In this document: in pieces, positions 56,450 to 61,916 of the stretch
How the letters are laid out: each line of letters starts with the position of its first letter
Numbering within the stretch: position 1 is the stretch's first letter
Origin: Podarcis liolepis
Taxonomy: Eukaryota
Reading direction: 5' to 3' (one strand)
DNA length: 64,000 bases
Assembly: GCA_965112155.1 (NCBI GenBank)
Contig: OZ218098.1
Notes under the pieces: generated by a model
Told to the model about the DNA's origin: nothing
Database searches by the model: none
Seen by the model: only the letters and a program-made list of their open reading frames with translations
Made by a program: the position numbers and the translations under genes

Positions 56450-56826
56450 GTTTCCGGGAAAGTGCTTTTGCCTATGCCATTGCAGCCGCAGGGGTGGTAC
56501 ATGCTGTCTCCAATGCATGCTCCCTGGGCAAGCTGCAGGCATGTGGCTGTGACCAGAAGCGCCGTGGAGATGAGGAAGCTTTCCGCCTCAAGCTGCACCG
56601 TCTCCAGCTGGAGGCCATGAACCGAGGCAAGGGGATGATGCATGGAGTGCACTTGGAACACATGCCAGCTGAGGCCCCAGGCCTGCAAGACTCCTGGGAG
56701 TGGGGGGGCTGCAGCCCCGATGTGGACTATGGGGAAAAATTTTCCAAGGACTTCTTAGATTCCCGGGAGACCTACCGAGACATCCACTCTCGCATGAGAC
56801 TGCACAACAACCGTGTTGGCCGGCAG
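56450..56826 (+). CDS. WNT10A: Wnt-10a, coding exon 3 (exon 4 not found in window)
   Basis: Acceptor ctctttcttgcag ending 56449, donor CAG|GTGAGC at 56827. Translates [29 protein letters not shown]...[17 protein letters not shown]...[12 protein letters not shown]...[12 protein letters not shown]. Confidence 0.97.
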
Positions 56827-57077
56827 GTGAGCTGAAAGCGCAGCGATGGGTTGGGTGGGGAGTTGGAGTCAAGGCTTGGAAAAAGGTTTCCGGGAGGGAG
56901 TCAATAACCCAGACAGTTCCTGATCTATAGAAATAAAAGAGGCTGATCATTCCAGCTCAGACACTCATCTACCTGGTTGGTCCAAGATGGTTTGTGCAGG
57001 GCTGGCGTAACTGAGAAATGCTGTCTGCATTTAATGTGATGGCAACTTCTAATTCAATCAGATGCAGACTTGAGTCA

Positions 57078-57393
57078 GGGCTTATCCACACTTACCTTTT
57101 GCCCTGCTCTTTCCAGGCACAAGCCTGTGCTTAAAAGCTCTGTGTCTGAGCATTTGTTTCCTTTTACTTTTTTTGCCCTGGAGCTTTCCCCTCACCCATA
57201 GTTTAGCATTCAGTGGGAACAAACATCAGTTTGCGTTTTGGGCATATTGCTGTTTGCTCTGATTGAGCTTTAAAAAGCAGGTTTTCATGGGGAAAGCTCC
57301 AGAAGGGTGGGGAGAAAGGGCACTTGGACATGAAGATTTAAAGCGTGGACCATGCCTGGAAAGAGCGGAGGAAAGGTAAGTGTGGATAAGCCC
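57078..57393. mobile_element. Foldback MITE, PIF/Harbinger-like
   Basis: Long TIRs GGGCTTATCCACACTTACCTTT / AAAGGTAAGTGTGGATAAGCCC extending into an imperfect whole-element inverted repeat. Superfamily inferred from the GGGC...GCCC termini. Confidence 0.8.
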
Positions 57394-58643
57394 TCCCATA
57401 GTGTACTGTGCTTGCATTCTGCCAGTGCTTGATCCCTGCCTGGAGCAATCTGAGAACCAAGAGCATCAATTGTGGTTTGTTTACCAGCAGAAATGATAGC
57501 ATGGTAGGGTCATCCTCATCTCTGTTTCCCTGATGCATAGCTTCTCATACTTGCATTTTAGATGAAGCAGAAGTGTGGAACGTGCAAGAAAATTATGGTA
57601 ATTCAAGAGATTTATTGTTCTGTTTAACTACTTAATCCATAAGAAAAGGCCCCGTTGCGCTGCATACTCAAGTCTGATTCCAAGCTCACTGGAAAGCAAA
57701 TAAAACACCCATGATTAGAAGCAGTTTACTTCTAGTCACTGAATGCTTAGAGCAAACAGGGCATGGACTGTATTCATCTATTTGTTGACTATTTATCCCA
57801 CCATGACTAGAATGACTATTATGTTATCCTTTGCTTATGAGACTGACATGGCATTTGGCTGGACACGATGTGCATGAGAATGCTGAAAGAGATGGACCAT
57901 CTGTTTTCTTACACTGCTCGGTGGATTTCTGCTTTCCATAAGAAGTGAGCATAGATCTGGCTGCAGAATTGCAGCAGCAACCTGCCCAACATAGGGATAG
58001 TTTTCATACCTTGATACCCTCATAAGTGGCACAAGGGAGCAAATTCTTAAAGTAAATAGAGAAGACCATGTTTTCACTTTTGCCATAAGAAGAGCCTGCT
58101 GGACCAGGCCAGTGGCTCATCTGCTCTAGCATCCTGTTCTCTCAGTGGGTCACCAGATGCATGTGGGAAACCTGCAAGCAGGACCCGAGGACAAGAATAC
58201 TCCATTCCTGAAGTTTCCAGCAACTGGTATTCAGAAGCATGTGGCCTCTAACACTGGAGGCAGAGCAGAGCCTCCATCATGGCTAGAAGCCCTGAATTTG
58301 TCTAAAATTTACTAGCCAAAATGTATGCATTCCTGACATGCACAAACTGTACAATGACCAGTTCCAGCACTATATTTTCCTGGTGTAAACTGCCTTGTGA
58401 AATGGAGCCTGTAAAGTGGCAGCTGGTGTTGCCACAGTCAGCCCTTTGTGACATGCTTTTAAAATCCTGTCCTTGTGAACACACAAACACCGTCTCCTTG
58501 CACAAAAGTAGCTCAGGATGATTAAAGCTGTTGATCTGCTTAATGATCTGCATGCACATCTCTGAAATTGCTCTGTATTCAGAATATTTGTTGTTCACTG
58601 AGCAACCATCGAGCTGCAGGTAGTAGAGATACTATCTGTACAT

Positions 58644-58723
58644 GCATCTGGCAAAGTAGATTCTGGCCCATCAAAACTTACGCTACAATATATTTTAGTT
58701 TTTAAGGTGTCAAAGAATCTTTT
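58644..58723 (+). mobile_element. Old Penelope-like remnant with degenerate hammerhead motif
   Basis: GCATCTGGCAAAGTAGATTCTGGCCCATCAAAACTTACGC...TAGTTTTTAAGGTG resembles a decayed CTGANGA-stem-GAAA motif followed by the PLE ...TTTAAGGTG segment. Confidence 0.55.
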
Positions 58724-59128
58724 TTTCCTGCATGGCACATACTGAGATGTAGATCAGCCAGTGCAGTAACCCCCATCTTGGAGAAGAGCATTTGTGAGGT
58801 TTTGAGAAAAGCTTGATTCAGTCAAGCACATCATTCTGCTGATTTAGGTTTGAATGCTAAAATACTGAACAGTTTGAGTGGGTGGCCACCCATGATCTGA
58901 GCTAGGTTCAAGCCTCTTTATTCCCCCACAACTAATAGTTCTACAGGAAAATCCAGTGAGAGTTACTATTACTAATTCATTACCTGCAACTAGAAAGTGG
59001 TTTTATAATAACAAAAGATGGATGAAGAAGTTAATTGCTAAGGGAAGAAAATGGCAATGAACATTTTCAGTGGAAGTAAGCCTAGCAAAAATTGTGCAGT
59101 CATCTCTAAGTTGTACAGCTGGGGAGGG

Positions 59129-59311
59129 TAGTAGATAGGTAGCCGTGTTGGTCTGCCATAGTCAAAATAAAAAAATTCCTTCCAGTAGCACCTTAAAGAC
59201 CAACTAAGTTAGTTCTTGGTATGAGCTTTCGTGTGCATGCACACGAAAGCTCATACCAAGAACTAACTTAGTTGGTCTTTAAGGTGCTACTGGAAGGAAT
59301 TTTTTTATTTT
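59129..59311. mobile_element. Penelope-like retroelement terminal-repeat insertion in inverted (palindromic) arrangement
   Basis: GGTAGCCGTGTTGGTCTG...AGCACCTTAAAGACCAAC...GAGCTTTCGTGTGCATGCACACGAAAGCTC resembles reptile PLE terminal repeats. Flanked by a perfect 12-bp direct repeat AGCTGGGGAGGG (59117-59128, 59312-59323). Confidence 0.8.
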
Positions 59312-59674
59312 AGCTGGGGAGGGCCAACCTTTTTCTATTGATGGACACATTTGAGGGTCACATTCCCGTGGGAGTAATCTGTCAGACAACAGTAGAGTCA
59401 GAAGTGGGTGCAGCTACTCCCTTTCTGTCTTTTTGCCATCCACTTCTCTCCCCCCCTTGTCCTTTTCCACCTGTTTTTCCCATTTGCCACTCACACGAAG
59501 TTGGGCCAAGAGTTGCAGATTCCTCACCAGCATTGTATAGGTACACCTATCTGATCTGATGCATCCATTTCTAATAACATGCAAACAGAAAAAAGAGGGA
59601 TGTCTGCATGGACTTGCCCACTCCCTTGAAGAGAATGGGGAAGCCCCTTAGAGGCAGGGTGCTTCCAGGTGAAA

Positions 59675-59950
59675 GGTTTATTGAGCATTCATTCTGATTT
59701 GTTTTCAGGGAGGTTAGATGACATTGCATCAAAGCAAGTGTTATCCCACACTTGCTTTGATGCAGTGTCACCTCACCTCCCACACTTTCCAGTGCATTAT
59801 CCCATCACTTCCCTTATTTCCAAAAGTCTTATCTTTTGGCAGGTGGGTTTGTTAGTTGACTTTCCAATCAACTATAATTGCACAACCTGAATTTGATGGT
59901 ATATGAATCCTACCTGAATCTCACCTGAAAATGGCAACAGTCTGGAAGTG
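59675..59950. repeat. Second, inverted copy of the 5377-5810 repeat
   Basis: TGAGCATTCATTCTGAT, AAGTGTTATCCCACA, TTCCAATCA, AATTGCACAACCT and GAATCTCACCTG match the reverse complement of the 5.4-5.8 kb copy. Confidence 0.7.
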
Positions 59951-60014
59951 TTAGGCAAGCATTTGGATGGATTAATTTATGCAGCAAGATGATTGATCGG
60001 AGGACCTATTAAGG

Positions 60015-61858: not shown

Positions 61859-61916
61859 AGGTTATGTATGGGATACTTGGATGGAACAGGTTATGTATGG
61901 GATACTTGGATGGAAC
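61859..61916. repeat. Perfect 29-bp tandem duplication
   Basis: AGGTTATGTATGGGATACTTGGATGGAAC x2 (61859-61887, 61888-61916). Confidence 0.95.

Follow-up and report, generated by a model that had tools for sequence, protein, structure and literature searches.

Insertion units of endonuclease-positive (EN+) Penelope-like elements (PLEs) are described as an inverted, 5'-truncated pLTR with a one-sided tail of 30-40 bp and a target duplication (PMC3846280; PMC8557442). Palindromes at the inverted junctions have been read as the result of self-priming on an antisense template (PMC3846280), and the mechanism generating the inverted ends is called open or undefined in PMC8557442 and PMC11167929. The latter paper reports that the Poseidon protein of the anole cleaves and extends both strands without a need for ribozyme cleavage, that it uses two internal start sites for reverse transcription, which bound the tail, and that it is predicted to form a dimer. 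Pairs of hammerheads on opposite strands have been described for metazoan PLEs (PMC4209133).

The insertion analysed here has a layout that is a known hallmark of PLEs. In the window, the whole 64-kb stretch of DNA that was analysed, positions 59164-59237 are the exact reverse complement of 59238-59311, confirming the spacer-less palindrome with 74-bp arms reported in a preliminary description. Its axis falls between 59237 and 59238, a position that at this locus (59117-59323) rests on the assembly, and the longest perfect palindrome elsewhere in the window has arms of only 8 bp. The insert measures 183 bp (59129-59311) and is flanked on the plus strand by identical 12-mers, the left copy (59117-59128) and the right copy (59312-59323) of a target-site duplication.

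The two arms are unequal. The long arm, running from stem II of a hammerhead through a tail, covers 116 nt on the minus strand (59129-59244); its left-hand 35 nt (59129-59163) form a one-sided tail that pairs with nothing on the right side of the insert. Read on the minus strand, this tail matches the start of the 910-aa ORF of the element and holds its first ten codons, with the start codon at 59159-59157. The short arm (59231-59311, plus strand) comprises stem II, the GAAA half of the hammerhead core and the downstream part of the pLTR, and ends at a T-tract; it is devoid of the CUGANGA box and the 5' strand of stem I. Stem II, a 14-bp self-complementary stretch at 59231-59244, is common to both arms. 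Each strand of the insert retains stem II and the GAAA half, a search of both strands found no CUGANGA box in the insert, and neither strand carries a complete catalytic core; the copy is predicted to be inactive in cis. The insert sequence and a search with the core pattern thus bear out the earlier statement that the join lies exactly at stem II and that the CUGANGA box was lost.

As RNA, the insert is computed to form a hairpin of 72 bp closed by a loop of 4 nt (-132.9 kcal/mol, z -21.9), in agreement with the double-stranded RNA of about 72 bp suggested before. Such a hairpin would be expected in the pre-mRNA, as for thousands of other copies. A role as an ADAR or Dicer substrate and cruciform formation in the DNA, both suggested before, are putative, as would be any effect on the Wnt gene. 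An Rfam search of 58500-60000 gave 27 matches, all below gathering scores and consisting of generic or miRNA-type hairpin hits; with no Rfam match above its gathering score, a microRNA precursor is not supported.

An intron of a plus-strand Wnt gene harbours the insert, 2,303 bp downstream of the donor site of the exon at 56450-56826 (plus strand; Pfam wnt, 2.2e-30), and the last exon of this gene starts at about 70.3 kb, outside the window (L111). Judging by the sequence and exon structure of WNT10A, we take the host gene to be presumably WNT10A and the exon to be its exon 3, which also sets the intron number. Exons of a second Wnt gene, presumably WNT6, are located upstream on the same strand (window 10.3-13.3 kb). 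The insertion site itself is ordinary. Its neighbourhood includes a 318-bp element (57077-57394) bounded by perfect terminal inverted repeats of 23 bp and containing further, nested inverted repeats, which looks like a non-autonomous DNA transposon, a 34-bp inverted repeat (59708-59781, 91%, 6-nt spacer) within another high-copy repeat, also found in the empty-site samples, and a perfect tandem duplication of 29 nt (61859-61916).

No further copies of the element were found in the 64-kb window. A protein search found element copies with open frames of 926 aa, and the pLTR-ORF junction matches the 116-nt long arm with 99.1% identity in four of the five stretches retrieved (L211-L214), all four of which carry such frames. 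The same four loci have matches to the arm on one strand at a spacing of 3,008 bp, with inverted copies alongside. The 910-aa ORF of L214 contains RVT_1 at residues 441-586 (1.3e-11) and GIY-YIG at 808-860 (2.2e-05). The parent element thus combines an ORF for a reverse transcriptase with a C-terminal GIY-YIG endonuclease and tandem or partial-tandem as well as inverted pLTR copies, and the insert adds a tail at one end that is within the 30-40 bp range (35 nt) and a 12-bp target-site duplication backed by an empty site. The match of the arm to the pLTR-ORF junction of elements with both domains establishes the Penelope-like identity that had been proposed, and the tail variant of the insert is that of the intact copies. 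Judging by domain order, we assume the family to be of Poseidon type. The full-length copies at loci L211-L214, on contigs C1, C2 and C3, are nearly identical, retain the 910-aa ORF intact and are arranged both in tandem, with a period of 3,008 bp, and in inverted arrays; the family looks currently active. The ATG within stem II of the young subfamily opens a frame that runs for nine codons up to a stop, and the long ORF has its first methionine in the tail.

The intact hammerhead pattern (CUGANGA - stem II - GAAA) is present in the pLTR of the parent element and has 11,974 exact matches in the genome, against none for a reversed control. Compared by eye, intact copies fit the minimal hammerhead of PMC4209133. 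An Rfam search with one intact copy gave no match; Rfam neither identifies nor rules out this motif, and self-cleavage by the hammerhead of the parent element is putative. Reads from four RNA runs of a second species label, placed on the intact pLTR, showed no accumulation of 5' ends at either the predicted start of the RNA or the predicted cleavage site. Since 82-85% of them continue into unlike sequence, their main source is truncated copies embedded in other transcripts, which swamp any start-site signal.

The insertion is real, recent and polymorphic. Fourteen sequencing runs contain at least half of the sequence words of the locus, and four of them were examined; no RNA run was among the matches listed for the locus, and a search for RNA from a carrier found none. 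A single contig joins 59116 straight to 59312 in three of the four (X2, X3 and X10), leaving out the insert together with one 12-mer. The single 12-mer that remains identifies the repeat as a true target duplication, so both the 183-bp insert and its 12-bp duplication stand as first described, and the empty site that was to be looked for has been found. Run X2 shares its species label with X1, while X3 and X10 bear the second label, whose two examined DNA runs thus both represent the empty allele. In X1, a contig crosses the filled right junction (59289-59594) with no differences; X1 may be the assembly's own sample and is then not independent. The occurrence of the empty site in three of four runs, one of them under the species label of the carrier, agrees with the suggestion of a very recent, possibly polymorphic insertion. 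The perfect arms, also offered as a sign of recency, are not special in this respect: of the 48 loci with the same axis that were scored, 35 have identical arm cores, as is usual in the class.

The join at stem II is not a one-off event. The exact 30-nt core around the axis occurs at 226 loci in the genome. When inverted joins were counted between 16-nt anchors, 16 loci had gaps of 0-13 nt, 229 a gap of 14, 170 (415 minus 245) gaps of 15-28 and 2,151 gaps of 29-58. Gap 14, which corresponds to the stem II axis, rises sharply above its neighbours, which average 1 locus per length for shorter gaps and 12 for longer ones (15-28), and it accounts for 9% of all 2,566 inverted joins counted around the hammerhead. 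The only other length counted singly, gap 30, has 156 loci and remains below it. The recurrence anticipated before is therefore confirmed by 226-229 loci, and of the proposal that stem II served as a priming or recombination point, its role as a joining point is upheld by the spike of 229 loci, whereas fold-back priming as a general route is not supported, given 42 of 63 neighbouring joins considered below. A second recurrent perfect-palindrome join (gap 48) was observed upstream of stem II, at a distance of about 17 nt; it retains the full core on both strands (L069, L141, L149, C1:19454732 class).

Hairpins are known to trouble sequencing, and no listed contig spans the axis at the present locus, as would be the case if the assembly or the library had removed a spacer between two copies of stem II. 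Such an artefact is nevertheless very improbable. A short-read contig of X1, derived from another copy (59188-59262, 7 differences), crosses the axis, reaching only 18 letters past stem II, stem II has decayed on one side in old axis loci, and 2,151 similar spacer-bearing hairpins were assembled without collapse.

Layout was compared between the first 50 listed axis loci, a non-random sample mostly from contigs C1-C3, and 67 first-listed non-axis loci, 5 of which belong to the rare class with gaps below 14. One tailed and one short arm were found in 49 of the 50 axis loci, and a target duplication of 12-17 bp in 48. The distance from the axis to the short end varies between 60 and 87 nt, tails are of two types, and the duplications differ from locus to locus with the exception of the pair L001 and L110. 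These two (C1:38.8 kb and C3:125.8 Mb) are the same axis insertion with shared flanks at two contig ends, that is, a subtelomeric duplication. The axis loci are separate insertions. The term "MITE-like" used for the palindrome earlier does not apply to the sampled loci, each of which was found with ends, a tail and a duplication of its own. A self-propagating family of this kind, copied from a master palindrome, would explain why the exact 30-nt core is common to 226 loci; given the variable short ends, the two tail types and the locus-specific duplications (L001/L110 apart), it is extremely improbable. A MITE family was rejected as a class, the termini being variable and asymmetric rather than uniform and the duplications ranging over 12-17 bp rather than being short and fixed.

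The same combination of a long and a short arm occurs in 63 of the 67 non-axis loci. The short arm reaches further upstream in 42 of these 63 joins and the long arm in 14, with 7 ties (binomial p 2e-4), and the non-axis short arms cluster at an upstream extent of 19-21 nt from the axis; for L056, the arm extents were used and the gap length was not, owing to wrong anchor pairing. Each arm in those 42 joins contains sequence that is missing from the other, the short arm an upstream part and the long arm the tail, which means that neither is a fold-back copy of the other. At their other end, the short arms of the two classes do not differ (median 74 nt in axis and 75 nt in non-axis loci, KS p 0.81), and the T-tract is likewise where copies lacking an inverted arm terminate, which marks this end as a priming site.

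The preliminary description had proposed fold-back priming at stem II. In such a route, which corresponds to the self-priming reading of PMC3846280, a single cDNA would halt in stem II, form a hairpin and copy its own first arm. The self-complementarity of stem II suits this proposal, as does the short arm of axis loci, which is contained in the long arm like a copy. Arms also share private variants (8 in 48 axis loci), and their T-tract variants agree in 32 of 42 axis loci (shuffled mean 19.2), but sharing is the same in non-axis loci (8 in 60, and 34 of 48 with a shuffled mean of 18.3). Agreement of T-tract variants above chance points to one source RNA or locus for both arms, and the shared variants fit fold-back or later homogenisation equally well. 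Arm-to-arm divergence is 1.0% in axis and 0.6% in non-axis loci, figures from a small sample with unequal anchors that leaves out loci whose arms were rearranged (1 of 49 and 7 of 67). The upstream sequence found in 42 of 63 non-axis short arms and absent from their long arms, the restriction of the tail to the long arm, and a short-arm end that coincides between both classes and with copies lacking an inverted arm make fold-back quite doubtful as the origin of the insert. This case rests on the neighbouring joins, in 14 of 63 of which the long arm does reach further; the axis product is symmetric, so that annealing, fold-back and fast collapse would all yield the same letters.

The cDNAs involved were probably short. 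Among 30 intact-core copies, 13 begin at a point 18-23 nt upstream of the axis (extents beyond about 95 nt are lower bounds in this count), where an initiator-like motif stands 30 nt downstream of a TATA box. A pronounced 5' boundary at this distance (18-23 nt) upstream of the axis of stem II is seen genome-wide (L016-L045, L116-L155), and from its sequence context it is probably the 5' end of the element RNA.

Considering the data together, we regard the insert as a dead head-to-head stub of an active EN+ Penelope-like element and consider it, with a probability of roughly 60%, to have formed in one event in which both target strands primed and the two cDNAs annealed through stem II. The element protein would have nicked both target strands about 12 bp apart, and the two 3' ends would have primed on the same source RNA at different sites, one at the tail and the other at the T-tract. 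Both cDNAs would have been short, since the RNA likely begins just 22 nt upstream of the axis, as suggested by the TATA box 30 nt before the initiator-like motif. Two cDNAs of the same sense could pair only through self-complementary sequence, of which stem II is the longest near that end; overlaps at non-axis joins amount to 0-5 nt or are replaced by fillers, and stem II offers 14 nt. Annealing through this 14-bp palindrome would have joined the cDNAs, and the unpaired flaps bearing the CUGANGA box would have been trimmed, the ribozyme motif acting here as a DNA palindrome and not as a catalyst.

The join could instead have arisen by collapse soon after insertion, if a product with two copies of stem II and a short spacer had lost the spacer through slippage or single-strand annealing, which is feasible since an inverted palindrome reads as a direct repeat. 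The sequence of the product would be identical, many longer joins retain stem II on both arms and are possible precursors, and gap 14 is near the floor of the distribution, with only 16 shorter loci. Axis joins do not take a larger share in an older subfamily (0.088, versus 0.106 in the young one), as shown by 15 axis to 171 longer joins in the older and 229 to 2,151 in the young subfamily (Fisher p 0.60), a comparison made with anchors of unequal length and only 15 old loci, in which lost old palindromes could mask a gain; stem II is intact in 5 of the 15 old and in 43 of 50 young axis loci. This indicates that collapse does not accumulate with age, and the present locus is still polymorphic yet already joined at the axis. 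Collapse as a later step is on these grounds unlikely; collapse within the insertion event may be compatible with the data.

Two primings joined through stem II at this locus lead to a wider and more tentative proposal, to which we give somewhat less than even odds, namely that PLE head-to-head structures routinely form by twin priming. A protein dimer would prime both strands at two internal sites of one RNA, the cDNA from the short site usually running off the 5' end of the RNA, close upstream of the hammerhead, and the tailed cDNA following and stopping earlier, with stem II as an inbuilt annealing site by which the insertion is closed. If true, twin priming would replace the published reading of antisense self-priming, and the approximately 2,600 joins provide a ready read-out. 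The preliminary description was right about the identity of the element, the join and its recurrence, and probably wrong about fold-back and the MITE comparison. The locus itself carries little weight, being one polymorphic dead stub among thousands and at most a presence/absence marker. The arm asymmetry and the join spectrum tie the two-strand, two-start-site activity seen in vitro to genomic products, and sharp predictions follow from them for the published anole assay. The family seeds more than 2,500 near-perfect hairpins of at least 70 bp in the genome, which may make it a candidate source of double-stranded RNA. Literature searches, with limited coverage of subscription papers, found no account of a stem II join or of twin priming in PLEs.

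Among known systems, twin priming of L1, reportedly described by Ostertag and Kazazian in 2001, is said to prime both strands and to leave an inversion joined at microhomology inside the target duplication. The two pieces of the L1 product do not overlap, while here the same 74 bases are covered twice and form a palindrome. Metazoan PLE minimal hammerheads, as described in PMC4209133, share with the family the core boxes, the bulged base before stem II, the G-C closing pair, a helix I of 4-5 bp and the palindromic 15.2-16.2 region; the insert differs in the absence of the CUGANGA half from both strands, with predicted inactivity in cis. The Poseidon element PAc of Anolis carolinensis, compared through its description in PMC11167929, likewise has an ORF with RT and C-terminal GIY-YIG domains, a hammerhead near the ORF start and two outer ends bounding a tail in the first codons of the ORF, and differs in that the anole ORF starts at stem II, whereas the first methionine here lies in the tail behind the hammerhead. 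With EN+ PLE units, as documented in PMC3846280 and PMC8557442, the insert shares head-to-head arms, a tail (35 nt) at one end, a duplication (12 bp against 8-10 bp in the rotifer examples) and a palindrome at the inverted junction. It differs from the units described there in its minimal size of 183 bp and in a junction palindrome that is the hammerhead stem II and has been counted genome-wide, and the arm asymmetry found here argues for two primings over self-priming.
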